DNA of 64,000 nt. Origin: Tubulanus polymorphus (Eukaryota > Animalia > Nemertea). Below are positions 1 to 60,548 of the stretch, one piece after another. The stretch's first letter is position 1. Each line of letters starts with the position of its first letter. A program made the translations under genes and the position numbers. The stretch is taken from NCBI RefSeq assembly GCF_964204645.1, contig NC_134033.1, forward strand, positions 9,122,655 to 9,186,654, given 5' to 3'. The notes below the pieces were generated by a model, which was not told the origin of the DNA, did no database searches, and saw only the letters and a list, made by a program, of their open reading frames with translations.

Positions 1-1
1 A

Positions 2-1240
2 TTTGATTGGAAGAAAAGAATCCTAGATATTGCAGATGATTCAGATATTGGTTACTTCTTCGTTGTAGATTTAGAATACCCTGAAAATATTAAATTCAAA
101 TCTAGAAATCTAGCATATTGTCCCGAACATAAAACTGTTAAACATGAAGAATTATCAAATTATCAAAAAAGAATTAAACCTGATAATCATATTCATACTG
201 AAAAGTTAATGGTAACTCAAGAAGATAAATATAATTACGTTGTGCATTATAGAATGTTGAAGTTTTATTTGAGACAAGGAATGATATTAAAAAAAGTACA
301 TAGATATATTTCATTCAGTCAATCTAAATGGTTAGAAAAATATATAGATTTTAATACTACACAGAGAACTAAATCTAAAACTGATTTTGAGAAGGATTTT
401 TTTAAGTTAATGAACAATGCGTTCTATGGTAAGACTTGTGAAAATATTAGAAATAGAAATGATATTGAGTTAGTTAGTAATGGTAAAAGGATAAGGCATT
501 TACAATCATATCCTAAGTTTATAGGTAACAGAATATTTGATGAAAATTTAGCAGCAGTTAAGATGAGAAGAACTTCAATGAAATTTAATAAACCAATTTA
601 TGTTGGAGCTGCAGTTTTAGAAATTTCAAAGCTATTGATGTATGAATTCTATTATAATGTATTACAACCACTTTTTGGAGAAAAACATATAGAAATATTA
701 TATTTTGATACAGATTCTTACATATTAAAGATAAAAACTGATAACATAACTGATGATTTAAAAACATTAAAACATCATTTTGATTTCAGTAACTATCCTA
801 AAGATCATGAATTGTTTAGCAATGATAATAAAAACGTTCCTGGGAAGTTTAAGGATGAATTAGGTGGTGAAGAAATGATAGAGTTCATTGGTATTAGATC
901 TAAAATGTATAGTTATAAAACTAAAACTCATGAAGCTAAAAAGTTAAAAGGAATTACCAAAAGCGTTGTTGAAAAGAATATTCATTTCAAAGATTACATC
1001 AATTGTATATTTAATGAAGAAGTTAGAAAACATAAGATGAAATGTTTAAGATCTGAAGATCATGAAATGTTTATTGAAGAAATTGAAAAGATAAGTCTAA
1101 ACCCATTTGATGATAAAAGATATATTTTAGATGATGGAATTCATACAGTTGCTTATGGTTGCAATTTAGATGAATACTTAAAATTTAAAAGAGAAGAAAC
1201 AAAAGAAAATGAGATTATGAAAAGGATTCTAGCGTGTTAA
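2..1240 (+). CDS. Protein-primed family B DNA polymerase, C-terminal part; intein-free allele
   Basis: Frame is open from base 2. Motif B KLMNNAFYGKT, motif C YFDTDS (701-718), GKFKDE, RSKMY, KLKGI and DDKR are typical of Polinton pPolB. Confidence 0.95.
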   Translation, partial: FDWKKRILDIADDSDIGYFFVVDLEYPENIKFKSRNLAYCPEHKTVKHEELSNYQKRIKPDNHIHTEKLMVTQEDKYNYVVHYRMLKFYLRQGMILKKVHRYISFSQSKWLEKYIDFNTTQRTKSKTDFEKDFFKLMNNAFYGKTCENIRNRNDIELVSNGKRIRHLQSYPKFIGNRIFDENLAAVKMRRTSMKFNKPIYVGAAVLEISKLLMYEFYYNVLQPLFGEKHIEILYFDTDSYILKIKTDNITDDLKTLKHHFDFSNYPKDHELFSNDNKNVPGKFKDELGGEEMIEFIGIRSKMYSYKTKTHEAKKLKGITKSVVEKNIHFKDYINCIFNEEVRKHKMKCLRSEDHEMFIEEIEKISLNPFDDKRYILDDGIHTVAYGCNLDEYLKFKREETKENEIMKRILAC

Positions 1241-1268
1241 TCAATTTCAATAAAAATTTGTATAATAA

Positions 1269-1610
1269 ATGGAGAGTAAACAAGTACACAGTGAATTCTT
1301 AGATAGAATTAAAGATACTTCAAGCGTCAAATCTGTAGATTATAAATTTAAAAAACTAACTGAGTTAACAATTCACAAGAAATATTTAATTACTAACATT
1401 GAAACAATTACTAATAAATATGGAGATAAATTAGTAATTCATTTAGAATATGAAGGATTAAAAGGAAATAAATATAAATTCAGAACTTATTTACCAGATA
1501 GATTTCATAGATTATCAAGTGAAGATCTAGAAGAATTATATTCTGGTGATTTCTATTTCATATATAAAGGTAAGAATGAAAAAGGGCACCATGAAATAGA
1601 TTTCGAATAA
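1269..1610 (+). CDS. Small viral protein, possibly OB-fold/SSB-like
   Basis: Intact 113-aa ORF with TAAATG start directly after PolB; beta-rich pattern (KYLITNIETITNKYGDKLVIHL...YLPDRF). The fold is inference. Confidence 0.55.
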   Translation: MESKQVHSEFLDRIKDTSSVKSVDYKFKKLTELTIHKKYLITNIETITNKYGDKLVIHLEYEGLKGNKYKFRTYLPDRFHRLSSEDLEELYSGDFYFIYKGKNEKGHHEIDFE

Positions 1611-1627
1611 GAAAATATGTAAAATAA

Positions 1628-2386
1628 ATGGTGGAATTAAAAGAATATAGAATATTTGTTGATTCTAGAAAACTTACAAATTATAAATCTCATAATTTAT
1701 TAGTACAATTAGATAGAGAATTTAAGAATTGTGTTGATTTAAAATTAGTAAATATAAGTTTATGTAATTCTTTTTACAATGTATCGGATAAGTCTATTGA
1801 ACATAGAGTCTTTTTAATTCATGATAGAAATAAAAGTAAATGGTTTCATCTTTATCTTAAACCAGGATTATATAATTTAGAAACATTAGCTCAAGAAATT
1901 AATAGAAGTGCTCGGTTGAAAATGGGTGCATCTGCTGGATTTGGATTAAGACTGATTAAAAGTGATAGTTCTGATAAAATAAGAATAAAATTAGGTAATG
2001 AAGATCAACATCAATTTCTAGTTAAAAAACCCTTAGCTAAAATTTTAGGAATAACCCCAGATGTAAGGATACGCAATGCTGATGCTACACCAAATATAAT
2101 GCCTTTTACACATTTTTATATTTATTGCAATTTAATCGATCCTACAAAAACATTCGAAGCAACTAAAGATATAACTTGTAATTCTGGTTTACTAAACATT
2201 TTACCATTGAAGAATGTTAAAGAATTTGGAACGCAAATAAATTATAATTTAACAGAATGTGATTTCAAACCATGCACTCCTCGTTTTAATAATTTTAGAT
2301 TAGAAATTAGAAATCATAATGGATACTTAATTGATTTAAATAATTTCCCTGTAATTTATGAATTAGTTATAAGATGTAGAGAGTAA
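1628..2386 (+). CDS. Minor capsid (penton-like, single jelly-roll) protein
   Basis: IFVDSR...LKLVNISLCNSFYNV N-terminus and YIYCNLI...LEIRNHNGYLIDLNN C-terminus resemble Polinton/PLV pentons; homologue at 55383. Confidence 0.75.
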   Translation: MVELKEYRIFVDSRKLTNYKSHNLLVQLDREFKNCVDLKLVNISLCNSFYNVSDKSIEHRVFLIHDRNKSKWFHLYLKPGLYNLETLAQEINRSARLKMGASAGFGLRLIKSDSSDKIRIKLGNEDQHQFLVKKPLAKILGITPDVRIRNADATPNIMPFTHFYIYCNLIDPTKTFEATKDITCNSGLLNILPLKNVKEFGTQINYNLTECDFKPCTPRFNNFRLEIRNHNGYLIDLNNFPVIYELVIRCRE

Positions 2387-2403
2387 TTTTTTTCACTATA
2401 TAA

Positions 2404-2745
2404 ATGAATATAACTGTTGGACCGAGTATATGTTTTGGGTTTGATTTTAAACATGGTAAAGAAATGAGAATTAAACTAAATGATGTAATTACTGATATAA
2501 AAAGTAAATCATTTAACAATGCGTCAATGATTAATAAAGAAAAGTATAATATAGAAAAAGTAATTGATTTAATTAAATCACCTTTAGAATATTATGAATT
2601 AAATGAAGATGGAATTATTGATGATATTAAAAACATATTATCCAAAATATATGATAATCATAAAACTAGTAATGAAATAAATGTTGAAATAATCATCACT
2701 AAGTTAACTAAATATTTTGATGATAGTAATTTTTTTGATAAATAA
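2404..2745 (+). CDS. Hypothetical viral protein
   Basis: TAAATG start; homologous to the N-terminal part of 56176-56745. Confidence 0.75.
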   Translation: MNITVGPSICFGFDFKHGKEMRIKLNDVITDIKSKSFNNASMINKEKYNIEKVIDLIKSPLEYYELNEDGIIDDIKNILSKIYDNHKTSNEINVEIIITKLTKYFDDSNFFDK

Positions 2746-2967
2746 ATGAGTGATAATAAGTGGATAATAACTGGATTATATAATGGCGCATTACTATCAG
2801 TTGGAACTGTTGGTTATTCAATGGTATTAAAAAAAGTATTCAAAATGGGAAGTGTTAATGTTGATAGATTTGATATCAATGATATTTTGAAATTAACGTT
2901 AGCAGTTACTTTATCTAATTTAACTATTGATTATTTGGAAAAACAAAAATATATTCCTCCCATATAA
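2746..2967 (+). CDS. Small predicted membrane protein
   Basis: Two hydrophobic segments; nearly identical to the C-terminal part of 56176-56745. Confidence 0.75.
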   Translation: MSDNKWIITGLYNGALLSVGTVGYSMVLKKVFKMGSVNVDRFDINDILKLTLAVTLSNLTIDYLEKQKYIPPI

Positions 2968-2991
2968 ATGCATAATTTTTTTGCTAAATAA

Positions 2992-3414
2992 ATGGCTTCT
3001 GCAATTATAACTATTATAGGATCGGCAATTGTTAACGCTTTAGCATTTACTGGTGGTGGTTATTTATTTAAACATATTGATAAAAATAGTTCATTAGGAG
3101 AACAAAGAAGACATAATTTAGCGTTAGAGAAATACAATAAAGCTGCAGAAGAATATAGAGAAAAGAGACAAAACTATATGGATTACATCAATAAAGAATT
3201 ATATGATCAGAAGATTTCACATAGAGATTTTCAATCAGTTGATGATGCAATGAGTTTATATAACGCAGTAACAAATAAAGAAAAATTACATCTATACAAA
3301 CCTAAATTATCAGATTATTATATCCCAAGTAAAGAACAACAGAAATATGAAATAATTTGGATTTTAGGTGGAACTGTTATTGTTATATTTGTTGCTTATA
3401 AATTTACTAATTAG
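2992..3414 (+). CDS. Predicted membrane protein with N- and C-terminal hydrophobic helices
   Basis: MASAIITIIGSAIVNALAFTGGGYLF and IIWILGGTVIVIFVAY; near-identical copy at 56770. Confidence 0.8.
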   Translation: MASAIITIIGSAIVNALAFTGGGYLFKHIDKNSSLGEQRRHNLALEKYNKAAEEYREKRQNYMDYINKELYDQKISHRDFQSVDDAMSLYNAVTNKEKLHLYKPKLSDYYIPSKEQQKYEIIWILGGTVIVIFVAYKFTN

Positions 3415-3433
3415 TAATTTTTTTTCTAAATAA

Positions 3434-3868
3434 ATGGAAGATAAAGTTGATAGTATTGATATTATTCCTCATGATATAAATAAAACTAAATTAAAAACAT
3501 ATTTAGAAAAACAAATATTAGAATTTGAAAGTGACTTAAAGATAAAAAAGAAAAAATATTTAAAAAGTAAAATTATATATTATTTGATTATAAGTGGTTC
3601 GGTTACAATTAGTTCTGTAATAACATTTCTAGCAATATTCAGCCCATTAACACCTTTAGCTATATCAATTGGTGTGTAAAGATTAAGTTCAAGTGTTTTA
3701 ACTGGTATAAGTTCAAAATTAAATATAAAAAGTAATAAAGAAAAAATAAAATCTAATATAAAAGAAATTAATAAATTAAAGAATACACTAGATTATATAA
3801 TAAGTTTAAATGGTCATATAACAGTTGAAGAACAAGATAAATTATTAAAAGAATTAATAAATTATTAA
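3434..3868 (+). pseudogene. Two-TM membrane protein with premature TAA (3677-3679)
   Basis: Colinear with the intact 144-aa ORF 57212-57646, which has TTA (Leu) at that codon. Confidence 0.85.
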
Positions 3869-3884
3869 TTTTTTAATTATATAA

Positions 3885-5267
3885 ATGGGGTTTCCAAAAG
3901 CTTTCCGATATAATAAATCAATTAAATATAATATTCCAGCAATAGATTTCAATAAAGATATTACATATAGAAATGAAGTTTTAGATTCATTAACTAATTT
4001 AGAAATTTATGTCACTGAAACTAATAATTTTAATGCAAAGATGGAAAATATATTTCATGTATATTTAATTAATTTTAAAAAATTGAAAGATGAAAAACAA
4101 TGGTTATTAAAATCTAATATGAAGTATTGGCAGAACCAATTAAATTTTGCTGTTTATTGTGCAACAACAGGATGTGGAATTAGTTGGAATGATCATTTGA
4201 ATAATTCTAAATATAAACTAATTCAAAGTTTATTTAGATTTCATACATACTTTCAAATCAGAATAATATTAAATGAATTAGAGTGTGCTTTACCAGGATC
4301 TAGATATTTTAAAGAATTAGATAATAATATTAATTTATCAAAGTTTTATAAAATTTGTAATGAATTTAATATAGATATAAATAATTCTGATTTTAGAACA
4401 AAAATTGGAACAATAAGATCACTTCCATGCCCTAGAAAGATTGCAGAATATTGTGCACTTCCCATACCATCTAATAGTTTTTATAATATCTATAATAATA
4501 AATTAGGTTATGGTAAAATAGAAACAAAGGATTTAGAAACATTAAATTTCAATAAATTACCAAAATTTTATGATAATTTAAAACAAGAAAACAATAATGG
4601 TTGGGTTTATTTTATTTTAGAAAATAGTGAAGGTTTTACTAAATCAGGTATAGAAAGAATAAATCAATCTATTAGAACTTATTTGATTTGTATTCTAGGA
4701 TCACAAGTTGAAACAAGATCACCGATAATTGGAAATTTGAATACATCATTCGATACACAAAAACAATTTAAAGTTTTATTTGAAGATTCAATTCATAATG
4801 ATAAAAATAGATCGATTCCAGAAAACATTATAAGATATCAAAATTATTTAGATAAATCACATATTAGATTAAATTATTGAATAGGCCCTAATCTATTAAT
4901 TATTTCTAATGATTTAGTATTGAAGATGGGAAATATAATTGGTTATAATAATCTAATTAAAACTGCAACAATAAATAATTCATTTGGATTGAATGATATA
5001 AATAAAAAGATTATTACTGCTCCAAAATTAATGGAAGGTGAAAAAAATAAAAAACATATTCAATCAACAGAAACTAAAACTAAGAATATTAAATTGGATA
5101 ATGATTCTAAAATAAAAGATTACAATACATCAGAAAATAATAGAACTGATAAAATTCAACATGATATAATTAAACTAAATGATGATAATAAATCCCATGA
5201 AAATACTAAATTAGCTATAACTTGTATAGGAATTGTAATCGGAGGAATATTATATTTTAAATTTTAA
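3885..5267 (+). pseudogene. Conserved ~460-aa viral protein with C-terminal TM; premature TGA (4878-4880)
   Basis: ORFs 3885-4880 and 4920-5267 are in frame and match the intact 57663-59051 (TGT, Cys, at that codon). Confidence 0.85.
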
Positions 5268-5283
5268 TTTTTTTATTATGTAA

Positions 5284-6876
5284 ATGGATGTAGAAGGTTG
5301 AGAAGATATTCCATTGGGTGACATGGGAAATAATAATGAAGGATATATTGATGATGATTGTAATGATGCAGAAACTAATATTGATAATGATGATGAATCA
5401 ACATATAATTCTAATTTAGCAGATAGTGGTTCTAAAGCCCCATCAACAGATGAATTTGATAGAAGAACTAGATCGAGAATACCTACTGAAAATTTAGACC
5501 CAGGTTTAAAAAAGGAAGATATATTGGATTTATATATAAGTTTCAAGATGTATTTAAAAAATCTGGATATAATATAAATGGTAGAGGCGCCAGACTTTTA
5601 GTACAAGAATTAAAATCTTTAGATGGTGAATATTATTATCATTTGAAAGATGATTATTATATTGATATCACTAATAAAAGGACAAGACGAAGTAAAATAT
5701 TAGCGGAATCAACTTTGGAAAATTTAGAAACATTTAGAATTAAGAAGAATAAGTATTAGTAATGAAATAACTGATGTTACACAAAAAGAAAGAGATGATA
5801 ATATAAGAGTATTTAGTCAAAAAATTGATGACTTATTTAAAATAATCGATGATAATCCAGAAACGGAAATGGAAGAGAATAGAGATCGATTAGATAAATT
5901 AAGATCTTCAACACCCGAAACATCTAGAAGAGATATTCAACAAATTGATAATGATTCAAATCAATTACAATTAGGAAAACATTTTGATAGCATGTTAGAT
6001 GCAATTCATTCATTTGACGAAGAGATGAATAGTATTTTAGATACACCCGGTACTGAAACTGGAATAAATCGAATACAATCTTTACTAGAAAAAGGATTAT
6101 TTGATTTAACTGATGATGAATTAGAAGCATTTCCTGAACAAGCACGTAGAGAAATTAAAGGTATGCAAGAATCAGCTGATAAAATTGCGCATGAAAAAAG
6201 TAAAAGAGATATTAAAATTAGATTTTTAGAAAAAGATAGAACTGATAAAAATAAAGAAATAGAACAATTAAAATTAGATAGAGATAATAAAGTTATTGAA
6301 GAAATTGAATTTAAAAAAAGAAATGCATATTTAGAAAAAGAAATTGATGATTTAGAATATAACATAGAATTACAAAAAGAAGAAATTAAATTATTATTAA
6401 AATCATATGATTATAATATTAATAGATTAAAAGTTATTTTCAAAGATTTGTTGATTAAACCAAATTCTGAAATATCATTAAAAGACAGAATAAAGTTATT
6501 ATTTAAATTAGAAGGAATAACAATTCTTTCAATTCTAACAGCTGTAACTATGGTATTTACAACAATTGGTTTAGCAATATCAAATGCTTTGAAATCTACT
6601 CCCACTCCCAATAAACCAGATAAACCCCCAGGTAATAATTCTATACAAGATAAAGTTAAAGATGGTTTAAAGAAATTAGCAAAATATTTATGGGAACTAT
6701 CTAAAAAATCTGCTGCAGCTTTACCAGGAGTTATTGCTTCAATTGTTGGTTTTATATTGAAATCTGCAGGTAATATTCTTAACTTTGCTGCTAAACATAT
6801 TATTTTATTTTTAATTACAGTTGTAAGTGCTATTATTTTTGGTTTAGTAAATATGATATCAAAAAATATCAAGTAA
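5284..6876 (+). pseudogene. Acidic / coiled-coil / multi-TM protein, disrupted
   Basis: TAAATG start MDVEG followed by TGA (GGA in the copy at 59068), then frameshifts; coiled coil and hydrophobic helices in 5869-6876. Confidence 0.8.
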
Positions 6877-6919
6877 ACCATGATATCAAAAAATAAATAA
6901 TTAATTTTTTGTTAAATAA

Positions 6920-8167
6920 ATGAGTGGGAGTTATATCAATCCTTCTAAGAATCATAGAATATCTAATGCTATTAAAGCAGAAAGATCACATCATATAATT
7001 ACTCATAACCCTTCAAATATTAATCCCGATGAAACTTTATACGTTAGAATCCCTCGATTAACACAAAATACTTTTTATGTTCCAAATAGTATTTATTTAT
7101 CAGCCGATATTAAAGTAATCGGTAATAATAATAATTATGTCGTTGATAATGTTGGAAGATATTTGATTAAAAAGTTAACAATAAAGATTGGTCCAGAAAC
7201 AGTTTTCTCATTAGATGATTATAATTTATTTATGCATTATAAAGATTTATGGTAAACTAAAGAAAATAGAAATAATATGATATTTCAAGGAATTCAATCA
7301 GAAAACCAAAATAAATTAAGATCAGAAGCGCATAATGCAATATTAACTAATGATGTAGATAAATTGATAAAAAGTATATATGGAAGTAAATATAAAATTC
7401 CATTAGACTTTGAATTGATAAATAATAATGCGCCTTTATATAAATACGCAATTCAAGAAGATATTATATTTGAGATAACATTTGCTCCTGTAAATGAAAT
7501 TGTATTATCTAGCGTTGTTAAAGATATGAGTTATAAATTATCGAATATATGTTTAGAATATGATACAGTAACTGATGAAAATATTTCAAGTATAATTCAA
7601 ACTCAATACAATCAAGGATTTTCATTATTATATGATTATATTGATAAATTTAAAACTGTAACTATTAATGCAAATGATGAAATAATTAATGAGAATATTA
7701 ACTTTCCTAGAAGATCTATTAAAGGTATATTAATATTTTTTACTATTGGAACGTATACTAATGGCGCAATAAATGTTGATAATTATTATAATCCTGAAAT
7801 AACAAAAGTAGAAATAACTATCGAAGGAATAGCAAATAAAATATTTTGTCAAGGAATGAGAATGATTGATCAATGGCCAGAAATTAGAAAACATTTTATG
7901 AATGAAAAAGTAAAATCATTTGAAAATTGTAACATTAATCAAATTGATTATTATACCGGTAATAAATATGCATTATGGTTAGATTTTAGAACAACAGAGG
8001 ATAACTTATTACATGGTTCTGGAAAAAAACTACAGAACACTAAAGATGGAATACAATTATTCATGACAAAGAAAAATGGAATCAAAAATTTTAAAATGCA
8101 CATTTATATTATATCTGACGCACAATTAAATATTATAAATTCACAATTAGATAGTGTTATGTATTAA
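6920..8167 (+). pseudogene. Major capsid protein (double jelly-roll), one nonsense codon at 7253-7255
   Basis: 415 codons, same length as 60549-61796; beta-rich pattern (LIKKLTIKIG, YKIPLDF, LSNICLEYD, ITKVEITIEG) and position next to integrase/ATPase. The fold is inference. Confidence 0.8.
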
Positions 8168-8199
8168 AATTTTAACTTTAATAAAAATATATATAATAA

Positions 8200-9129
8200 A
8201 TGGAAGGAGGTAAAGTATATAAACATATTCCATACATTGATACACATGAAAATAATGATGGTTTATATTATGTAATACCTTGTAATATAGCATTGATATT
8301 TGATCCTATTTTTAAAAATTATAAAACTAAACTGATAGAAATCGATAATAATAAAAGTGGTGTTGTTAATAATAGTGTAATTGATAATAATGTAATACCT
8401 ACTACATCTGTAATACCTACTACTACATCTGTAATACCTACTACACCTGTAATACCTACTACATCTGTAATACCCTCTACATCAAATAATATAATACCTT
8501 CTACATATAATAATGCAATAATATTAAATGTTAGTGAAAATAGAAATTATTGTGGTTATTGTAATGGTGAATTTTCAAACGCTCCATCAAATTGGAATAA
8601 ACATATGAATACAAATTCACATATTACTAATGTTATAGAACGTGTTGGTTTAAGAGAATTTATAGAACACCCATTTAGATATGTTACAAAGTTTGTTTCA
8701 AATAAAAAAGTAAATGGTAAAGAATTATATGAAGATTTTTTATTAGCAACACCTAATAAAGATGAATTAGATTTAACCGATGCTAATGAAATATTAGGAT
8801 CAAACACTGTAAATGAAATATTAGGAGCAAACACTAATAAAGATAATAATGAAAATGGTACCATACAGCACCCACATGGTGATATAGTTACAGGAAAGCG
8901 CATTGATAATAAAGATTCTATAAAACTTAAAGTAGAAAATAATGATAAATTTGATTGGATGAATAAGTTTAAAAATGAAACAACTATTGATGATTCGGTA
9001 AAAAAGGTGAAAAAGGTGAAAAAAAATTATAAAGATGTTGAAGAAGATTCGGTAGAGCATTTAAATATGTTGTTAGGGCCGTCTGATAGTGAAAGTGATT
9101 CAGAAATTAATTATCTAACACTCGAATAA
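8200..9129 (+). CDS. Accessory protein with VIPTTS repeats and a matrin/U1-type C2H2 zinc finger
   Basis: YCGYC...WNKHMNTNSH; tandem 18-21 bp repeats at about 8390-8500. Confidence 0.7.
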   Translation: MEGGKVYKHIPYIDTHENNDGLYYVIPCNIALIFDPIFKNYKTKLIEIDNNKSGVVNNSVIDNNVIPTTSVIPTTTSVIPTTPVIPTTSVIPSTSNNIIPSTYNNAIILNVSENRNYCGYCNGEFSNAPSNWNKHMNTNSHITNVIERVGLREFIEHPFRYVTKFVSNKKVNGKELYEDFLLATPNKDELDLTDANEILGSNTVNEILGANTNKDNNENGTIQHPHGDIVTGKRIDNKDSIKLKVENNDKFDWMNKFKNETTIDDSVKKVKKVKKNYKDVEEDSVEHLNMLLGPSDSESDSEINYLTLE

Positions 9130-9196
9130 TAAAGGTTGAAAATTGTATAAAATAATAGTAAATAAAAAAAGGGTTTTAATTATTTAAGGTACCTTA

Positions 9197-9265
9197 TAGG
9201 GTATCAGGTATTAGGGTATCAGGTATTAGGGTATCAGGTATTAGGGTATCAGGTATTAGGGTATC
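9197..9265. repeat. 15-bp tandem repeat (TAGGGTATCAGGTAT) x4.6
   Basis: Directly visible between convergent genes. Confidence 0.95.
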
Positions 9266-9287
9266 TAATACATAGGTATACAAATAG

Positions 9288-9899
9288 TTATTTTATAAAT
9301 TTATATTCATAGGGAAATTGTAATCTCAGTAATAATTTTGAACCTTTATTATTCTTTAATTTATTCATATATTCATCATGTAATTCAGGAGGTATAATTT
9401 GATTTTCTTCCAATGATTGTTGCATAGATTTTCTATCTTTGTTGTAGAATAAAACTAGAAATCTTATATTCTCTCTAAAAGCTTTCACAATTGAATTATA
9501 TTTCTGATTTAAAACCCAAGTTGTTATCCCAAAATGTCTTCCAGAGAAAGCTAAATAGCATAACTCACTTTCTCTAACTTTTGAATCATGTAAATCAGCG
9601 CAATCATCTATAATGAATAATGTATTTGATCCTTTATAAGTATCAATTGCTATTTTTATACAATTATCTAAATTTTCTTTTACTGTTTTAGGATCTAATA
9701 TAATAAACTTTTTTATCTTAACTATATCTCTATTATATGTTTTATTCATTTCATATGTAGGACAGAATAATATTATATTATCAAAATGATTCTTATAAAT
9801 AGTTTCTAACAAGTCTAATATGAAATGTGTTTTACCACAATTGGTTACTCCAGTTATTAACATATTATGTGGTTCAAATATAAATAAATCTTTATTCAT
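9288..9899 (-). CDS. A32/FtsK-HerA family genome-packaging ATPase
   Basis: Walker A GVTNCGKT, Walker B LFIIDD, SGRH motif, downstream Q sensor and FRENI. Confidence 0.93.
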   Translation of the reverse strand: MNKDLFIFEPHNMLITGVTNCGKTHFILDLLETIYKNHFDNIILFCPTYEMNKTYNRDIVKIKKFIILDPKTVKENLDNCIKIAIDTYKGSNTLFIIDDCADLHDSKVRESELCYLAFSGRHFGITTWVLNQKYNSIVKAFRENIRFLVLFYNKDRKSMQQSLEENQIIPPELHDEYMNKLKNNKGSKLLLRLQFPYEYKFIK

Positions 9900-10980
9900 T
9901 TATTCTTTTAATTTTACTAGATAAAATCCATTCATTAAATTTATCATCATATCCTTTATATTTCACCAAAGAATACTTTTTTCCTTTAAGAGTTTTTGTT
10001 TTCAATACCTTTTCTATTTTGTATTCTATTTCATCTGGATTTGGTACTAATGATAATTCTTGTTCATAAAAATAACCTAATATTTCTTCATCTTTTAAAT
10101 CAAACAATTTATAAACAAATGGTTTAGTTAATATTATCTTTTTAATTTTAAATATTTCTTCAGTAAAATTAGGGGTATAACCTTTATAAAATGTTTTTCG
10201 ATATTTAGAAATTCTAACATGTTGTCCTATTTTAAATTTAGGTTCTCCGAAATCATGTGTAACAAATGCTCCATATAAATTATTCCAAACTATTTCTGAA
10301 TTTTCTTCTTTTCTAGCTTGTATAGGTTTCATATTTATAGAACTATGTTTAGAATTATTATAACCTTTAACTAAATCATCTAACACATCGATATATTTAT
10401 ATGTTTCATTAGCGGTGAAATATTTCCACATTCTAGTTTTCAATGTTTTATTAAATCTTTCTATAACAGATGCTTTTTTATCTGAATGTGTTGAAAAATA
10501 TTCTACATCGTTATCAGATAATAGTTTTTTAAAATGTTTGTTATAAAATTCCTTACCTTCATCAAATTGTATCTTATCTGGAATAGCTTCTTTAAATATA
10601 GATTTAAAAGCATTTGTTACTTCTATACCAGTTTTATTTTTAATCGGGATACTCCATGCGTATCTACTGAATATATCTATAACATTTAGTATCCAAAAAT
10701 ATCCTTTGTTATATTCTTCTAAGTTTTTCATGTCAATTAAATCAGCTTGCCATTGTTGGTCAATATATGAAACCATTACTTTTCTTGTTAAATATTTTTT
10801 ATCCATCTTTTTATGAATTTGATATGTGGGTTGATTTTGTAACCATGATTTTAATTCACTATATTTTATATTGCTATTATCAGATTTAATTTTATTCCAT
10901 AATTCTGAAACGTTAGAATATGATACTTCACTTTCTGGGTTATAATATAAATCTCTTAAATATTGTTCTTTTTTCATCAT
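9892..10980 (-). CDS. Retroviral-like (rve) integrase with C-terminal chromodomain, intact
   Basis: WQADLID, IDIFSRYAW, QFDEGKEF, IERFNKTLK (DDE); YKIEKVLK...LVKYKGYDDKFNEWI chromodomain. Confidence 0.95.
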   Translation of the reverse strand: MMKKEQYLRDLYYNPESEVSYSNVSELWNKIKSDNSNIKYSELKSWLQNQPTYQIHKKMDKKYLTRKVMVSYIDQQWQADLIDMKNLEEYNKGYFWILNVIDIFSRYAWSIPIKNKTGIEVTNAFKSIFKEAIPDKIQFDEGKEFYNKHFKKLLSDNDVEYFSTHSDKKASVIERFNKTLKTRMWKYFTANETYKYIDVLDDLVKGYNNSKHSSINMKPIQARKEENSEIVWNNLYGAFVTHDFGEPKFKIGQHVRISKYRKTFYKGYTPNFTEEIFKIKKIILTKPFVYKLFDLKDEEILGYFYEQELSLVPNPDEIEYKIEKVLKTKTLKGKKYSLVKYKGYDDKFNEWILSSKIKRINE

Positions 10981-10983
10981 ATT

Positions 10984-11343
10984 TTAATCCATTAATAATA
11001 TTTTAGATTTATTTTCATTTGATTTATTTTCTGGTGGTTTATTGTCTGTACACGGATAACAAAGTTTCCGATCATCTTTATCGTCAGATTTGAATTTTGA
11101 TTTATATATTACACCGGATAATATAATAACTGTTACTAATCCAATTGTAATATATAATTTATAATTACTTCCAGCATTAGAAGAATTAGATGGATTATTA
11201 TTTGAATCAATATCAGGTGATTCATTTATATCAGTTAATTTCTTTTTCTTAGCTTTTTTTAATTCTGAAGATCTTTTACCTAATTCTCTTGCCCATTTAA
11301 TTTGTTTCTCGGATCTAGCCTTTTTATTAACTCCATCACTCAT
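10984..11343 (-). CDS. Basic N-terminus, single-TM protein
   Basis: RSEKQIKWARELGKR; TM segment LYITIGLVTVIILSGVIY; TAAATG start. Confidence 0.7.
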   Translation of the reverse strand: MSDGVNKKARSEKQIKWARELGKRSSELKKAKKKKLTDINESPDIDSNNNPSNSSNAGSNYKLYITIGLVTVIILSGVIYKSKFKSDDKDDRKLCYPCTDNKPPENKSNENKSKILLMD

Positions 11344-11938
11344 TTATTTTAGTTAATTTTTGTTCTGATTCATTTTCTGTTTCGATGTTTTGTTGTAGTA
11401 CATCTGTTTCGTTCTTACCTGATTTATATTCCATAGGTTTGATATTCGAAAATGTTATAACTCCAGTAGAAATCAATGTCATAACCGATCCTAATTGAAA
11501 TGAAGCATATCCAACCCATTTTTGTAATTCAGTCATAACTAAATAGTCATTTTTCAAATCATTATATAATTTATTTTCATCATCAATTGGTATTAACTGG
11601 TTACATAACTTAGAATAACATTTGACAATACCATTAGAAATAGAATCATTTATTCTAGCTAATCGAGCTTCTTCATAAATCTTAAAATATTTTATTACTT
11701 TATCGGGTTTCATAGCATCTAATTCTTGAAAAGTAATAGTCTTAGTTAAAAACTCTTTAGTTTTTCCACCGGCAATCAATAGTTCTAGATGATGCTTACA
11801 ATATAAATAGTATTCATAATCTATATTGTTATTAACTTGAATAGAATTAGTTACAACTGTATCTTTATTATCACTTATACCCAAATCATCTAATGTTTTT
11901 TCAATATCAATACTATTCTTATTAGATTTCTTTGACAT
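11336..11938 (-). CDS. Conserved hypothetical viral protein with a hydrophobic C-terminal helix
   Basis: TAAATG start; homologue at 63733-64000 (IEKTLDDLGI, YEYYLYCKH). Confidence 0.75.
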   Translation of the reverse strand: MSKKSNKNSIDIEKTLDDLGISDNKDTVVTNSIQVNNNIDYEYYLYCKHHLELLIAGGKTKEFLTKTITFQELDAMKPDKVIKYFKIYEEARLARINDSISNGIVKCYSKLCNQLIPIDDENKLYNDLKNDYLVMTELQKWVGYASFQLGSVMTLISTGVITFSNIKPMEYKSGKNETDVLQQNIETENESEQKLTKINE

Positions 11939-12366
11939 TTATATTAGAGGAAAAAAGCAAAAAAAAATATTATAAGTATTCTTCAAATGATACTAGTATC
12001 TCTTTAGGTTAATACTAAATTGACTAGGGACTAGGTTAGTTAAAGTTAAAGAATTTCTATTCAAATCTATTCAAAATCTATTCAATCTAATGTCAATTAG
12101 AATTACCAAAAGAAAATATTGAAAATATAATAGAATTGACTAGCTAGTTGAAGTTATTGTTTTTTAATTATATTTTATTTAAATTAGGATTTAATATCTC
12201 ACTACTATTGTCTATCTATAGGAGCGGTAACTATAACTGTCCAGATAAGTCATTTCGGATTCTCGATAATAAATCCTAAAACTGAAAATAAATTCAAAGA
12301 AACGACTGGTGGAAATCTTATTTCATAAACACATATATTTATTATGTAAATTTTAGCGATCGATAA

Positions 12367-12557
12367 TAGAACAATGGAGAACAATAGAAATGCGGTCCAA
12401 TCGGACCGGTTATTGCGCAATACTTAGTTAACAGTAAACAATCAATACAGAACAACCGCCGCCATTAACAACGATCAATAGTAGAACAATGGAGAACAAT
12501 AGAAATGCGGTCCAATCGGACCGGTTATTGCGCAATACTTAGTTAACAGTAAACAAT
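12367..12557. repeat. Perfect 76-bp direct repeat (12367-12442, 12482-12557) with internal palindromes
   Basis: Directly visible. Confidence 0.9.
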
Positions 12558-12625
12558 ACAATATTAAAACAGATATATACAATCGAGATTACATTTTTGA
12601 TATCTAAGACCTTCAGTATTATAAC

Positions 12626-13354
12626 TTATAATTTTGTCCAGAATTCTTTAATTACTGGATTGTTTCCAATCATTTCTTCAATTTCTGGTAAATGTCTTAC
12701 TACTTCACTAAATGCTAATCCTAATATTTTGAATTTTTCATATTTTATTAATCTACCTACTCTTCTCAGTTTTCTTTCAAAACCGGCACTGATATCTATG
12801 TTCTTTTTAACCCACAGTCCCCAAGAAATCCCCTCAGTTTCTTTATCAAACATTGAAAACCCTATATTTAGATAACCCCCGAAAATGATGTGGTCCCATA
12901 GGTGATTTGCTTTTCTATTTAATACGGTTTTATAACTTTTTTTTAAGATATCAGTAATTTCAGCAAATGAAATAACTTCTACACTTTGTATTTCCGGAAA
13001 GTTTAAATGTCCTGTGTCAATGATTAATTTAAATTTTAAAAACTCGTTCAACTCTTCTCCACTCATTTTCTTAGTTTTCGATTCTTTGAGCCCCAACAGC
13101 AATTTGAGTCGCGTTGCTGGTAATTTTGGTAATTGTAGTTCGCGCGGTAATTGTTTATTATGTATTACATCACTCAGAATTTTCACCATTTCTTGATGAT
13201 AGTCCAAATGTTCTTGTAATGTTTGTGAAGTTTGTTCGTCAATTACGAGAGTTTCATCCTCCATTTCTATTGATTCCTGAGTTTCACTATCCAGTAGCAA
13301 TCGTTCCTCATCCGTTGGTTGGCTTAGAATTTCTGGTTGATCTTTGTGTTCCAT
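12626..13354 (-). CDS. Hypothetical accessory protein
   Basis: 242-aa ORF with TAAAATG start; no family recognised. Confidence 0.6.
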   Translation of the reverse strand: MEHKDQPEILSQPTDEERLLLDSETQESIEMEDETLVIDEQTSQTLQEHLDYHQEMVKILSDVIHNKQLPRELQLPKLPATRLKLLLGLKESKTKKMSGEELNEFLKFKLIIDTGHLNFPEIQSVEVISFAEITDILKKSYKTVLNRKANHLWDHIIFGGYLNIGFSMFDKETEGISWGLWVKKNIDISAGFERKLRRVGRLIKYEKFKILGLAFSEVVRHLPEIEEMIGNNPVIKEFWTKL

Positions 13355-13702
13355 TTTAATCTAAAAGATATCGTGAAAATGAATTACTATACTTAAATAT
13401 GTTTAAAGGTTTCCCTACTTCATAATAACTACAAAAAACGGTACTTACATTTAGATTTAGAACTGTAAACTGTGTTTTGAGAGAGAATATCCAATACGTA
13501 CCATGTATGTGAAAGTTGATTTCTAACTGCCGACGTGGCGCACGTTCGACCAAACTAATTACTTCTGCACAGATGTTCTTTATGATGAAGTTAATTAATT
13601 CTTTAGAATTGAAAACAAGATATATTTGGCAACATATGTTTTAGTAGTAAGCAAAAGCTATGTATTATATACATACAAAGCTCAAATAGAATTGCCAGCT
13701 TT

Positions 13703-14387
13703 CTAACCACTGATCAAAACCTCAGAATGCGGTTGATTCTGTGAAATACTATTCCATAATTCAACAAATGTCTTTGCTTTATCCAGTTGATCTAAATATA
13801 ACTGTAAATCTAGTTTATTGGATTTAATAATGTTTTCCTTCTTTTCTAAAGGTCTTAGATTCTTCCAATTCCAAATAAGTTTTTTATTGTATTCATCATT
13901 CATGTCAAATTTAGAAATCGGCAACACATGATCAATATGAAAGTATTCACCATAATTATCTATATTCATTTTATCGTCGAATTGATATATTATCCATGAT
14001 TTGAGAAATTCATCTGAACAACCCAATAGATTAGATAGTGTTTCTGAATGTGTTTCTTTGTTGAATAATTGTGTTAATCTAGATCTTAAGCATTGTTTCA
14101 ATCTAAAATTAAGATCTGTTTGATATCTTTCTCTCATATATTCTGTCATATAATCATTATAAGCTTCTCTATTATCTTCTCGGTATTGTTTGGTATATAG
14201 TTTAAAACAAGTTTTACAGCAATATTGAAAACCATCTTTGCTAATCTTACGCTTACTAAATTCTGTTAAAGCTAATTTATCTAATTCACATTTAAAACAC
14301 TTCTTGTAGTATATGTTTATAACGCCAGTGTTATTTGTAATATTGATAATGGTTGTTCTAATGGTAATGTGGTTGTTCTGGTTCCAT
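13703..14387 (-). CDS. HNH/endonuclease VII-like nuclease of the type common in large DNA viruses, with N-terminal Cys motifs; frameshift near the start
   Basis: LLGCS...FHIDHVLPIS...WKNLRPLEKKENIIKSNK. The frame stays open upstream of 14149 (KKCFKC...CCKTC). TAAATG at 14387 is out of frame. Confidence 0.75.
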
Positions 14388-14466
14388 TTATTATACGTAT
14401 TTTTTTACTAAATTGGTTAATAATTTTAGAATCCTCTTCCATTTCTTCGACCAACGTCATCCTTTT

Positions 14467-14718
14467 TCATTCCTCGCTGCTTTTGATAAGTTCTTTCGAT
14501 TCCTTGATAATAAATTCCTCAACGTATTGTTCATTATTTGGATCATTATTCCATAATTCAATAAATTTCTTTCCCTTTGTTAACTGTTCTGAATATAACT
14601 GTAAATATTCTAGTTTCAATTTATTCTCTAAATGTGTTCTAGTTTTATTGTGTCTTGCTTTTTGGGATTTATCTATATCGATATTACATGTTGGGCAGTA
14701 GTACTTATTTGCTTCCAT
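14467..14718 (-). CDS. Small C2H2 (matrin-like) zinc-finger protein
   Basis: YYCPTCNIDIDKSQKARHNKTRTH. Confidence 0.65.
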   Translation of the reverse strand: MEANKYYCPTCNIDIDKSQKARHNKTRTHLENKLKLEYLQLYSEQLTKGKKFIELWNNDPNNEQYVEEFIIKESKELIKSSEE

Positions 14719-14929
14719 TTTAATACTATATTTTTTATTAAAATTGATTTTAGAAGTTCAATGATTTATATCATGCATTATTTCAATCACACTTTACTAA
14801 CACTTTTAATGTTTAAAAATCTAACTCACACAAATATAAATATTGAAATAATGTTGTAAATATATCTATATATCTATTCTATAAGAGCTTACACTTTTAA
14901 ATGTTATTCATTTACATGAATATTTTAAG

Positions 14930-20556: not shown

Positions 20557-21891
<1,335 letters not shown>

Positions 21892-46678: not shown

Positions 46679-48012
46679 ACAGAACTATCATCTACAGCCG
46701 TAGCAAACACGCTTATGATTTGAAAATTGCCATCTTACAGCATCCTGTCAACTGGCAGTCAAATTTTCATGGAACTGTTTGCATCAAATTTTGTGAAGCG
46801 CCAATATGCAATTTTATTAGTTTGCTTTTTTCATTAAGAATCTTCCAAGGTTTTGAAAAAGAAATTTTATTTCACTCAGGATCAGTCAGGCAAACATGGG
46901 ATTGTCTACCACACACAATACATACAAAATCAATTGAAAATGTTGGCTTCTTAACATGGTGAAGTGTAGTGCAACCAATGAAATGATAAGCGTCTCTTCT
47001 TCCTCATTTAAATTATTGTTATTACAAAGTACTATGGTGCGTAAAAATTCCTCATTATTAAATAAATTAATGAATACTTGAATGTATGATCATTCAATGT
47101 ACTTTAAATGTTGTGTTTTGTGGTCATCATTTTTGTGGGGTTATTCTTTCGTTCAGGCACATAACCTCAGGGATTCTATACTACTGAATCACATTGTCTG
47201 ATTTTGTAAGCTAGTCTTTATTGTAGTTCAGAAAAAAACCGGTGTTACCACTAGCCACAACCTTTTTTAGCAAAGCTATTTTCAGTCCTATTCTCGAAGA
47301 ATGGTCGACGTCGGAAATCCGGAACAGAGCGAAAGAGTAAAGAGCAAACTATCAGTTTGGAATACCAAAACTGGACTGACTTTATTTTTACACATAGCTA
47401 TTTATATAACACAGATTCAGACAGGTTGAGACATGGAAAATGATGCAAAAACAAAGGTAGTAGTGACATGACAGTGAGACAAACAACAATTAACACATTC
47501 TGACACAGACAAACAGTCTCAGAGGACAATGAGTAATAAGATGGAGAAATAAAACAATAAAGAAATACGAAATATAGATGAAATATGTATAACAATTATC
47601 AGTGATATTTAGTGTTGTTAAACTTTCACATGAATTACATTAATGGGAGAAACTTATTACATGTACATAGCATGAAAAAGTTTTTGTTGACGTCTATGAC
47701 ACCAATGCCAGTAAAATGGATCGATGGTCCGTAATCAAGAAAAGATCCAATGCTTTACTACGCGAATGGAGAGAATTTTAAATGACTTGGTTTCCAGATG
47801 AAAGGCCTTAAGGCTGGCTTATGTCGACAAGCAATGCGACGCCTACCGACGCAACTGGGTTTATCGCCGATTAGCGGTCTACGAGAGGCCGCCAGTTGCT
47901 GCTCTATCGGTTCGACATAAGTCGGCTAGTAATTGGAAGATGTGGGTTTCATACCAGAGTACTAGAGTACTAAACACCACTCATCACCACAAGTAATTTT
48001 TTTTCCTAATAA

Positions 48013-51000
48013 ATGGGAGAGAGTGAGTACCAGACAGAAAACAATGATGTTAATAAAAATCAATATTATTGCCAATATTGTAAAAAATACATCGATAAAT
48101 CTAATAAATCTAAACATGAAAAATCTTCAAATCATATAAAAAATGTTATAGATTTTGAAACCCCAGAAAATTCCAATGAAAGAAAAGAACGATTAGAAAA
48201 TATGAATGTGGATGTGGATGAAATAAAATTTGAAGTTTGTAATGAATTTATAGTAAAAAGGAATTATAATAGACATCTCGAATCACAAAAACACCATCAA
48301 AATTTGAGTAATAATGTTTTAGGAAAAGATTATTTTGATGATAAACCTCAAAAAGTAAAAAAACCAACTTCAAAAACTAAATCCATTTCAAATAAACCTT
48401 ACATGGAAAATGTTAGAAATTATATTGATTCACTAGAAATAAAAGATACAATTGAAATATTAGAAACATTACGTAGTAAAATTGGTCCTGCAGCTATTAT
48501 ATTTAGATTTTTTAAAGGTACAACAATAGAAGATTATAGTAAATTTAATGAAAAAATAGAAAAAATACTAGATTTGATAACAGATGATGAATATCCAAAA
48601 ATTAGTATCTCTGGGAAAGTACGTTTTTTAAAGTCAGAAGAGAAAATGGATTATAATATTCAAACACTCTTTGAAGAAATAATTTCAAAAACGCAATAAA
48701 ATAGAAGTTAGAAAAAATATTTAATGAATTTAAACGTCATATTGAAGAAAGATATTTTGAGGGTTCTGGCTTAACATTGAATGAAATTATATATTTAGAT
48801 TTAAATGTTTATAATACAAAAAGAAATAAAACATCAAAAAGTAATAAAATGTTTAAAAATGATTCAAACTTTACAACAGAAAAGGATATTAAAGCATCAT
48901 CTTATATTAAATTACCATTTACAACAAAAGCAGTAATAAATGTTAAAAATGAAGATAATAAATGTTTTCTATGGTCAGTTATTAGTTGTTTACACCCAAC
49001 AGAAGATATGACGCATAGTTTTAGAATAACAAATTACCGGAAATATGAAACATTATGTAAAATTGATCAATATCCAGTAACTATAAAAATGATTCCTAAA
49101 ATAGAAAAAGTTAATAATTTAAAAATAAATGTATTCGAATTAATGCAATTACCAAAGACAAAAGGTGAAAATGTTAAAGAAGCTTTATATTTAACAGAAT
49201 ATTATGATGATGAAAATGCTATAGATTTGTTATATTACAAAAAAAGATGAAAATGAACATTATATGTGGTTAAAACAAATTGATTTATTCTTTAGAACAG
49301 AAAGTGATCATCATCGTAAAATTTATCTATGTAGAAAATGTTTATCTAAATTTATGACTGAGAATACATTATTAAAACATAAAAAATTATGTGATAATAA
49401 AGATTTTTGTAAATTAATAATGCCAACAGAAAAAGATTATAAATTGAAATTTACTAATCATAAATTTAAGAATATTGTTCCATTTGTAATTTATGGGGAT
49501 TTTGAATCGTTGAATAAAGAATTAACTGATCAAGATAGAAAAGAAATATATAACAAAAAGCAATTATTAAAATCAATGGATAAAGGAAATGAATTAAATG
49601 AAGACACAATACAAGACCCACCAATTATAAATACAATTAAAAAAGTTCATCAAAGAGCTGCTGCTTATGGAATTTACATCAAATCAAATTATCCCGAATT
49701 ATATGAAAGTCAAGATATTTCTTTTAGAGGTGAAAATGTAGTTAATGATTTTTGTGATAAAATGATTGAATTAGAAAGTGATTTTGCAAAATTATTAAAC
49801 AAAAATAAAAGAATAGTTATGACAAAAGAAGATGAAATTGATTTTAATTATGCAACTCATTGTTGTTATTGTGAAAAAAGTTTTTATTCATTTAATAAAA
49901 AAAGTTAGAGATCATGATCATTTAAATTCAAAATATCGTGGAGCTGCTCATGAAGATTGCAATTTACAAGCTAAGAAAGTTAATTTCGTACTAATATTAT
50001 TTCATAATTTATCAGGCTATGATACCCATTTATTTGTAAAACAATTATCAGGAAAATTAGGTGCAATTAATCAAGAAATAGAAGAATATAATGCTATGAA
50101 TGGTGTAAATGTAAGAAAATATGATTTTAAACTATTAGCTAAAACATCTGAAAATTATATTTCATTTCAGTTTGGTTGCATTAGATTTTTAGATTCTTAT
50201 AGATTTCTAGCAAGTTCATTAGATAATTTATCAAAAAGTTTAGTTGATAATGATTTTGTTATAACTCGATATTATTATCCAAATGACCAAGATTTTAAAT
50301 TATTGAGATATAAAGGCGCAATTCCTTATTCATTTTATAAAACACACAATGATTTTAATGTAACAGAATTATTAAAAGATCAATTTTATGATTAATTAAA
50401 AGAGGAGTATGTGAAAGATGAAGTGTTTAATAGAACATTAAATATTTGGAACCATTTTAAGATGAAAAATCATGGTGAATTAGTTGATTTATATTTAAAA
50501 TCAGATGTTATGATATTAGCTGACATATTTGAAAAATTTAGAGAAGTTAATTTGAATCATTTTAATGTTGATCCTTGTTATTGCTACTCTAGTCCTGGTT
50601 TAACCTGGCAATGTGGTTTAAAATATACAAATGTAGAATTAGATTTATTAAAAGAACCAGATATGGTTTTATTATTTGAAAAATCAATTAGAGGTGGAAT
50701 TAGTGGTGTTATGGGAGATAGATATTTTAAAGCAAATGATGAATATAAATTATTATATATTGACGCCAATAATTTATATGGTTGGGCAATGATGCAACCT
50801 CAACCATACAAAAATTTCATATTAACAGAAGTTGAAAATGATGACAAAACTGATTGGGAAAGCGCAATTGCGAGTTTAGAAGATGAAGCACCAATTGGTT
50901 ATTTCTTTGTAGTTGATTTAGAATATCCTGAAAATATAAAGTTTAAAATATAAAAATATAAACTTACCTTATTGCCCAGAACATTTAACCGTAGATGATA

Positions 51001-55314: not shown

Positions 55315-55382
55315 TTATTAAGGAAAAATTTTATTAAAATTAATTTTTAGTGATGAGCGGTAATTTTTTTATATTATAAATA

Positions 55383-56159
55383 ATGGTAGAATTAAAAGAA
55401 TACAGAATATTTGTTGATTCTAGAAAACTTACAAATTATAAATCACATAATTTACTAGTACAATTAGATAGAGAATTTAAGAATTGTGTTGATTTAAAAT
55501 TAGTTAATATAAGTTTATGTAATTCTTTTTATAATGTATCAGATAAAACTGATGAACGTAGAACCTTTTTTATTTATGATGAAATTAAACTTGAATGGAC
55601 TCAACTTATGCTTACACCAGGATTATATAATTTAGAAACATTAGCGCAAGAAATTAATAGAAAAGCTCGAGCTAAATTAGGAAGTGATTCTAAATCTATT
55701 ATTAAATTCATAAAAAGTGAGAGCTCTAATAAAATTAAAATAAAGTTTAATAATGAAAAACCTATTGGTATTGTTTTACCTGCTTACTATGTAAAAAAAC
55801 CTTTTACTAAACTGTTAGGAATTCCTCCAGATAAAAGTATTGTTGAAAACATATACGGTATATCAAATTTAATACCTTTTACGCATTTTTATATTTATTG
55901 CAATTTGATTGACCCAACAAAAACATTTGAAGCAACTAAAGATACAATTTGTAATTCTAGCATATTAAATATTTTACCATTAAAAAATGTTAAACAATTT
56001 GGAACGCAAATAAATTATAATTTAGCTGAATGTGATTTTAAACCTTGTATTCCACATTTCAATAATTTTAAATTAGAAATAAGAAATCATAATGGATATT
56101 TAATTGATTTGAATAACTTTCCTGTGATATATGAATTAGTTATAAGATGTAGAGAGTAA
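55383..56159 (+). CDS. Minor capsid (penton-like) protein
   Basis: Homologue of 1628-2386. Confidence 0.75.
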   Translation: MVELKEYRIFVDSRKLTNYKSHNLLVQLDREFKNCVDLKLVNISLCNSFYNVSDKTDERRTFFIYDEIKLEWTQLMLTPGLYNLETLAQEINRKARAKLGSDSKSIIKFIKSESSNKIKIKFNNEKPIGIVLPAYYVKKPFTKLLGIPPDKSIVENIYGISNLIPFTHFYIYCNLIDPTKTFEATKDTICNSSILNILPLKNVKQFGTQINYNLAECDFKPCIPHFNNFKLEIRNHNGYLIDLNNFPVIYELVIRCRE

Positions 56160-56175
56160 TTTTTTCATTATATAA

Positions 56176-56745: not shown

Positions 56746-56769
56746 ATGCGTAATTATTTTACTAAATAA

Positions 56770-57192: not shown

Positions 57193-57211
57193 TAATTTTT
57201 TTTCTAAATAA

Positions 57212-57646: not shown

Positions 57647-57662
57647 TATTTTTATTATATAA

Positions 57663-59051: not shown

Positions 59052-59067
59052 TTTTTTTTTTATATAA

Positions 59068-60530: not shown

Positions 60531-60548
60531 AATTTTTTTGTTAAATAA

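Follow-up and report, generated by a model that had tools for sequence, protein, structure and literature searches.

Introduction

Mimicry of helper promoters is known from Sputnik, mavirus and PgVV (10.1101/2022.07.28.501842), and in the transpoviron of pacmanvirus, helper signals of the early and of the late type occur together (PMC11788076). Polinton-like viruses (PLVs) have been found in entomopoxvirus occlusion bodies, with one lineage branching with the maverick-polintons (Barth et al., 2024, PMC11296320). Here we analyze a 64,000-nucleotide (nt) stretch of the genome of the nemertean Tubulanus polymorphus (NC_134033.1, forward-strand positions 9,122,655 to 9,186,654; hereafter the window), which contains two copies of an endogenous Polinton/Maverick whose genes nearly all start at a signal resembling that of poxvirus post-replicative genes.

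In vaccinia virus, TAAAT(G) overlaps the start codon in late promoters and a T lies ten bases further up, and intermediate promoters carry TAAA with no T at the tenth base and an A-rich stretch 15-19 nt up (PMC11980589). The intermediate core has no consensus and is read by its shape, separated by a 12-bp spacer from the TAAA, which is read directly by the viral polymerase (PMC12917281), and slippage at the initiator yields 5' poly(A) leaders (PMC12722222, PMC6211774). The yeast virus-like elements pGKL1/2 likewise combine protein-primed linear DNA with a TAAAN initiator and 5' poly(A) leaders, but they encode an RNA polymerase and a capping enzyme themselves, use an early-type upstream element and lack a capsid (PMC6211774). 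By gene content, the elements described here resemble the Group 2 Maverick-Polintons (10.64898/2026.06.19.733378), with a protein-primed DNA polymerase (pPolB), rve integrase, A32 ATPase, major capsid protein (MCP) and penton in a variable gene complement. The available text of that PLV framework preprint has no match to "promoter" and no promoter analysis, the coral polintovirus survey PMC11131425 has no match to the word, and the main text of PMC11296320, supplements not covered, contains promoter, motif, TAAA and transcription 0 times. We found no report of pox-type promoters in Polintons in a literature search that left supplements and most subscription papers outside.

A first-pass annotation of this DNA had proposed that five A-rich sites formed a second promoter class with its own fixed spacing, shared by unrelated, mostly non-structural genes and reflecting a two-stage programme tied to the cascade of a helper virus.

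Results

A common start signal across the gene set

Two related A/T-rich copies are present in the window, element 1 spanning about 1-15300 and element 2 about 48000-64000; both are cut by the window ends and set in DNA of 35-50% GC that includes a retrotransposon. The motif-bearing element is an endogenous Polinton/Maverick, and the gene set of such elements is present (pPolB, rve integrase, A32 ATPase, major and minor capsid proteins). Thousands of variant pieces of element 1 occur among DNA contigs from three runs of a single study, and it therefore belongs to a many-copy family. Among the runs listed for it none was of RNA, and the one run that may be RNA contributed 1 contig, which says nothing about expression. 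For comparison, 80 related loci were collected from metagenomes (L-numbers); searches of viral_contigs and genome_contigs returned no relatives.

All 17 placeable gene starts of element 1 carry the signal, in the form TAAATG (14), TAAAATG (2) or TAAAATATG (1). We hand-curated 54 TAAATG starts from a close clade consisting of the window and L001-L005, counting positions upstream from the T of TAAATG. T stands at -9 in 50 of these starts, and A is found at -15 (44 starts), -14 (39), -3 (42) and -1 (51), whereas TAAATG away from starts in the same DNA has T at -9 in 45/126 and A at -15 in 48/126 (p 2e-13 and 1e-7 versus starts). Positions -13 to -10 range from all T to all A. Since T at -9 is found in A-rich and T-rich starts alike, the fixed spacing belongs to the whole promoter set and is not, as had been proposed, specific to one class. 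The same T is enriched in two more distant, higher-GC tiers (23/27 and 23/36 starts).

A given locus uses TAAATG at nearly all of its starts or at almost none, with 14/15 open reading frames (ORFs) in L003, 3/4 in L006 (GC 0.44), 0/4 in L024 (GC 0.28) and 1/8 in L021 (GC 0.26). We rejected both base composition and stop-start coupling as causes of the TAAATG starts, since use does not follow GC across loci and the TAA is the stop of the upstream gene in only 2/54 starts. On an MCP tree of 41 rows, restricted to ORFs of at least 250 amino acids, the 21 TAAATG users require 3-4 changes versus 14 with shuffled labels; L016 was scored as a non-user though TAAATG sits just before its MCP start. The other 45 loci have TAAATG at 0/175 starts, a figure that is partly circular, the tiers having been picked after usage was seen, and that we do not use as evidence. 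A vaccinia early-type core pattern matched once in element 1, away from gene starts. No co-oriented gene lies upstream of 16/54 close-clade starts, and in 12 head-to-head pairs TAAATG occurs on each strand. In such pairs the T tract of one gene is the A tract of the other, so that geometry alone can set the class.

Number and origin of the A-rich sites

Within element 1, the annotated A-rich pattern matches exactly at 1253-1272+, 1612-1631+, 8184-8203+ and 14384-14403-. The sequences and coordinates of all five annotated sites were correct, four being exact and the fifth, at 14718-, indeed looser (TAAAATG); a further site at the ATPase start (9899-) had been overlooked. With up to 2 mismatches there are 6 matches versus 0.62 expected. 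Dinucleotide shuffles of element 1 contained no exact match in any of 300 replicates. The pattern was drawn from these same sites, so the shuffle test overstates significance, and AAAAT-N8-TAAATG was tested too, giving 5 occurrences in element 1 versus a shuffle mean of 0.2 and maximum of 2. A scan of spacings from 3 to 14 nt in both window elements and L001-L004 peaked at 8 nt (12/34 matches), and 10 of these 12 stand at gene starts. Among same-species copies of the 1269 promoter, the 40 of 61 rows shown contain two substitutions and no spacer indel, so the spacing is kept, as annotated, in those rows. The visible part of element 2 lacks the SSB (single-stranded DNA-binding protein), 8200 and HNH genes and has 0 exact A-rich sites.

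Three of the five annotated sites (1269, 14387 and 14718) are, by comparison of their flanks, copies of one sequence and not independent. Outside the core, the flank of 1269 matches those of 14387 (z 4.8) and 14718 (z 3.5), and pairs passing z 2.5 numbered 4/45 between A-rich sites, 0/28 between T-rich sites and 0/80 between the two. ORF 14718 aligns to the HNH C-terminus with a score of 85, versus a maximum of 66 in 1000 shuffles, as expected of a deleted HNH-like paralogue. The genes behind the A-rich sites can thus not be called unrelated, nor are they mostly non-structural, as ORF 1628 encodes the penton and 9899 is the start of the packaging ATPase. Gene shuffling at these promoters is suggested by contig joints such as those between 1610 and 14752 and between 14749 and 14423.

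Class assignment among relatives

From the 54 close-clade starts we removed 14 (13 that lie within or directly next to upstream coding sequence, or whose orthologues do, and 14387 as a copy) together with 8 near-duplicates, leaving 32. The A-rich form is a distinct minority subtype within this clade, with 6/32 non-redundant intergenic starts, and to this extent the proposed second class stands; it is labile across orthologues and is not linked to function. Assignment is stable for only two genes. The 8200 family is A-rich in 4/4 members (window, L001, L002 and L004, with L001 and L002 near-identical), the proteins being about 47-50% identical in the stretch they share, and the zinc-finger gene 55314 has the same A-rich-block form in element 2 and L003. 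The SSB start, in contrast, is A-rich throughout in element 1 but T-rich throughout in L003, the HNH start differs in class between element 1 and L001, and the penton start, A-rich in element 1 and in L003, is T-rich in element 2, L008 and L041. The penton start is also T-rich in the loose end of 6 same-species contigs.

Beyond the close clade, gene and class were unlinked in 44 starts of 17 more distant loci (p=0.25), close-clade class means failed to predict the distant starts (rho -0.17), and the MCP start alone spanned the full range from T-rich to A-rich. Nor does class sort genes by function, the penton and ATPase starts being A-rich and the pPolB-module, integrase and deoxynucleoside kinase (dNK) starts T-rich. 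The segregation of class by gene that the first-pass annotation expected across the family therefore holds in the close clade, with the SSB, penton and HNH switches set against it even there, and fails outside it. As gene assignment is not stable, the A-rich sites cannot be filed as an intermediate class.

Comparison with poxvirus promoters

A TAAA initiator stands at or near the start codon, as in poxvirus intermediate promoters, and T at -10 in 40/54 starts agrees with the late type, defined by TAAATG, a T at the tenth base and a T tract. All 8 strict A-rich sites lack T at -10 and have the A-rich block, in a setting where all upstream DNA is A/T-rich and the vaccinia core has no consensus. 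By analogy, the A-rich form appears to fit the geometry of vaccinia intermediate promoters (no T ten bases up, and A-rich further up) and the T-rich form that of late promoters (T ten bases up). The earlier comparison with poxvirus intermediate promoters is supported for the pox-type initiator and, as a resemblance, for the geometry.

The likeness to the VITF-3-dependent intermediate promoters lies in TAAA on the start codon, an A/T-rich block 10-22 nt up and, in strict sites, no T at the tenth base. The A run here ends 9 nt from the initiator, unlike in vaccinia, and the setting also differs, being an integrated Polinton with no RNA polymerase seen and labile gene assignment; the resemblance is one of sequence. 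Most element starts are closer to vaccinia late promoters (PMC11980589, PMC5294985), with TAAATG overlapping the start codon and a T tract about ten bases up, but the element uses this form before polymerase, integrase and kinase genes as well, and it grades into the A-rich form.

Gene content and other features of the window

The start signals and genes are listed in Table 1. The pPolB gene was assigned from family B motifs in its sequence; it had no Pfam match. ORF 1269 was modelled at a predicted local distance difference test (pLDDT) score of 82, with PRD1 P12 as the best Foldseek match (E 4e-3), OB folds at Z up to 5.6 and an Atlas lead of 0.85, which makes an OB-fold SSB the likely product. 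Neither a sequence search of the PDB nor scanning the SSB alignment against Pfam added useful information. The Atlas clusters nearest to the SSB are commonest in arthropods. The predicted structure of ORF 1628 (pLDDT 66), with the mavirus penton 6g41 as best fold match (E 1.4e-7), identifies it as a penton. In the MCP search the only named eukaryotic match was from a bivalve, at 40% identity; MCP relatives in the P0047 cluster are filed under several Bartonella assemblies, on contigs of 0.5-1.6 kb, and are likely eukaryotic contamination. The HNH domain match is weak and comes from the L001 homologue of the HNH-like gene. The visible part of element 1 showed no polymerase subunit, VLTF3 or TBP, and neither the window nor L003 showed a protease.

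Table 1. Start signals and genes of the two elements (window coordinates).
Feature	Position	Strand	Basis or remark
A-rich start signal, SSB-like gene	1242..1272	+	starts 2 nt past pPolB stop
A-rich start signal, penton gene	1601..1631	+	
A-rich start signal, gene 8200, past MCP stop	8173..8203	+	
A-rich start signal, broken HNH-like gene	14384..14414	-	copy-related to 1269 site
Looser A-rich start signal (TAAAATG), ORF 14718	14715..14745	-	no co-oriented upstream gene
Fifth AAAAT-N8-TAAATG site, packaging ATPase start	9896..9926	-	inside integrase coding sequence
T-rich TAAATG starts 2404, 2746, 2992, 3434, 3885, 5284, 6920, T at -9 in each	2386..6922	+	
T-rich TAAATG start	11935..11965	-	no co-oriented upstream gene
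T-rich start of first ORF of element 2 (pPolB-module), element end	47986..48016	+	
Hybrid start (A-rich upstream block and T tract), zinc-finger gene of element 2	55311..55341	-	same form in L003
T-rich start, penton gene of element 2	55356..55386	+	
pPolB gene, 3' part, element 1	2..1240	+	start outside window
SSB-like gene, likely OB-fold single-stranded DNA-binding protein, PRD1 P12/phi29-like	1269..1610	+	predicted structure
Penton (minor capsid protein) gene	1628..2386	+	predicted structure
MCP gene, two ORFs in this copy	6920..8167	+	Capsid_N, weak
Accessory gene 8200, zinc-finger-like stretch	8200..9129	+	sequence
A32-type ATPase (9288-9899) and rve/chromo integrase (9892-10980)	9288..10980	-	Pfam
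Broken HNH-like endonuclease gene (start 14387, frame broken) and deleted paralogue ORF 14467-14718	13703..14718	-	
VLTF3-like remnant, element 2	53006..53290	-	Pox_VLTF3, E 3e-5, 24.2 bits; cut-off 25

In element 2, the zinc-finger ORF and the VLTF3-like remnant lie on one strand (53006-55314, -), split by stops and by inserted DNA, part of which repeats at 44400-44901, and they are possibly one broken gene. The piece between them has no VLTF3 Pfam match, and comparison of the remnant and ORF 55314 with longer proteins found no homologues, which is weak evidence. A candidate in a relative that looked VLTF3-like by eye (L046:4144-4746) was rejected, with no Pfam match.

The two copies also differ in arrangement. 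The integrase-ATPase block of element 1 (9288-10980) is inverted relative to that of element 2 (62005-63556), and the ATPase stop is followed in both by short tandem repeats with differing units (9195-9265; after 63556). Two genes that abut at TAAATG in element 1 (2746) form one fused ORF in element 2 (56176-56745), where the internal start signal is lost. The broken polymerase gene of element 2 contains an intein with a LAGLIDADG-like domain (51645-52490). Near the right end of element 1 lies a long imperfect inverted repeat (14930-15340), either a terminal repeat or an inserted element, and in the retrotransposon region some 215 nt are perfectly self-complementary (20674-20888), possibly as a simple repeat or an assembly artefact. 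Relatives of the TAAATG type carry dNK genes (L003:10343-10981, L007:2898-3377).

Relatives with other start codes were also seen, each pattern having been picked post hoc. In L015, L017, L018 and L020, which have the same gene set, a TATA-type signal lies at most 22 nt from the ATG in 19/25 starts of core genes versus a 7% background; it often stands behind an A-then-T tract and resembles the asfarvirus late signal. Two of these loci (L018 and L020) also encode VLTF3-like ORFs. Two groups of loci (L028, L031, L055; L021, L023-L025, L040, L051) show two further codes, TTGAA within 60 nt of the start (16/30 versus 6%) and at least four A directly before the ATG (10/20 versus 2%).

Discussion

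The motif, its position and conservation, and the switches of class between orthologues were directly observed. The A-rich sites are a real feature and resemble pox-type post-replicative starts, and the interpretation first placed on them is partly supported. We give a probability of about 0.5 to the reading that the elements use one pox-type post-replicative promoter with a labile A-rich variant, likely read by a pox-type helper virus. The A-rich sites would then be variants of a single signal, made up of an A/T tract, T at -9 and TAAATG at the start codon. Nearly all genes of this Polinton lineage begin with that signal, and the helper's RNA polymerase is its likely reader. That nearly all genes start at a poxvirus-style signal suggests borrowed pox-type machinery, and a helper of this type is inferred because no polymerase gene is visible. 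Since relatives do not keep the A-rich form on the same genes, it probably represents a tuning variant and not a fixed second timing class; present on few, partly duplicated promoters, it would adjust the level or onset of expression gene by gene, with no function-linked stage.

Extending the vaccinia model, transcription would start in the AAA, slippage would give the mRNA a poly(A) leader at its 5' end, and the shape of the A/T tract roughly one helical turn upstream would be recognized. By a further step of the same analogy, expression would follow DNA replication and take place in the cytoplasmic factory of the helper. A T at -3 from the ATG, together with an in-frame stop, is a poor Kozak context unless the mRNA begins in the AAA.

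Several points weigh against a single promoter read by a helper. The count of A at -14 to -10 is two-humped in the 32 reduced starts (0:9, 1:13, 2:2, 3:2, 4:1, 5:5), a TT(T/C)AATAA block occurs in 8/54 starts, all of them A-leaning, and the Akaike information criterion favours two classes; the Bayesian information criterion favours one. Within the close clade, class is linked to gene (p 0.0002-0.0006; element 1 versus L003 alone, p=0.085), as shared descent predicts. TAAATG is itself common in DNA of 23% GC (49 in element 1 versus 30 in shuffles). No helper was found, a motif scan of viral_contigs giving 7 loci; we rejected these as helper candidates, as they had no BLAST match to the element proteins, and read them as chance. 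Finally, the left part of element 1 lies outside the window, and therefore a factor encoded by the element itself is possible.

The two-humped count and the separate upstream block are what would be expected of two true temporal classes, the A-rich form corresponding to vaccinia intermediate and the T-rich form to late promoters in a programme of two steps run on a pox-type helper, some genes having changed class during evolution. The uniform lack of T at -10 in the strict A-rich starts recalls the difference between intermediate and late promoters, the vaccinia cores at about 11 nt (intermediate) and 6 nt (late) from the initiator roughly match the two forms (PMC12722222), and by hand count the ATAA of 1269 and 8200 is in register with the G8R scaffold (PMC12917281). 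The A-leaning set includes SSB, ATPase and zinc-finger genes, and in vaccinia A32 and A2 are intermediate and membrane proteins late. G8R itself, however, carries a T at the tenth base, and an intermediate core without consensus would be fitted by any upstream region of 23% GC. The switching of orthologues and the missing gene-class link in distant tiers also count against timing classes, as do the T-rich starts of pPolB, integrase and dNK, the ATPase starts that sit within coding sequence, and the MCP, T-rich in the close clade yet intermediate in vaccinia (D13). We regard two stages as possible but doubtful, as sequence alone cannot separate stages from tuning.

Integration in many copies would also suit transcription by host RNA polymerase II, with the A-rich block being mainly the AATAAA of the upstream gene and TAAATG a compact start context. 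All 8 strict A-rich starts lie behind a co-oriented gene (pPolB, SSB, MCP, 14718), versus 38/54 starts overall, and AATAAA follows soon after the pPolB and MCP stops. We consider this explanation improbable, given that the same block precedes 14718, 55314 and L003_11054, all without a co-oriented upstream gene, that the strict sites 1628 and 14387 lack a perfect AATAAA, that only 1/6 gene ends lacking a following start have AATAAA within 60 nt, and that spacing is tied to the next ATG and not to the previous stop (17-105 nt). We think it very unlikely that a VLTF3-like or zinc-finger factor encoded by the element makes an early-to-late switch on a host or helper polymerase, with the A-rich block marking genes expressed before the factor acts. 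The remnant in element 2, the VLTF3-like ORFs of the two TATA-type relatives and the A-rich block of the zinc-finger gene upstream of the remnant (in element 2 and L003) speak for such a factor; set against them are VLTF3 Pfam scores just under the cut-off in element 2, L018 and L020, the lack of Pfam support for linking ORF 55314 to the remnant, the absence of candidate factors from visible element 1 noted above, and no TBP or polymerase match among 46 non-core ORFs of relatives.

The single-promoter reading places these elements beside virophages, PLVs and transpovirons, which are likewise small DNA elements without their own polymerase and with a giant-virus-type promoter before most genes. 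Those systems have mimiviral or asfarviral motifs, protist hosts and a known helper, unlike the pox-type motif in a Maverick found here; the entomopoxvirus-associated PLVs are Polinton-like elements that are linked to poxviruses. A bolder version, which we consider unlikely as a whole, would make the lineage an endogenous virophage of a pox-type virus, running an intermediate-then-late programme on the helper polymerase with the aid of its own VLTF3-like factor, while sister lineages with the same gene set rewired all their starts (TATA-type, TAAAAATG, TTGAA).

A second promoter class matters less on its own; if true, it would mean a satellite using two stages of a helper cascade, and the comparative evidence for it is mixed. 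Of wider interest is that a pox-type signal precedes nearly all genes in some lineages and other signals do so in sister lineages. The start signal makes it directly testable whether the Polintons of animals are nuclear elements that suffice for themselves or depend on large DNA viruses as their satellites, and a pox-type signal predicts a pox-type virus in hosts with none recorded here. If the helper-virophage reading is true, the promoter code would record the helper family that each lineage has followed.

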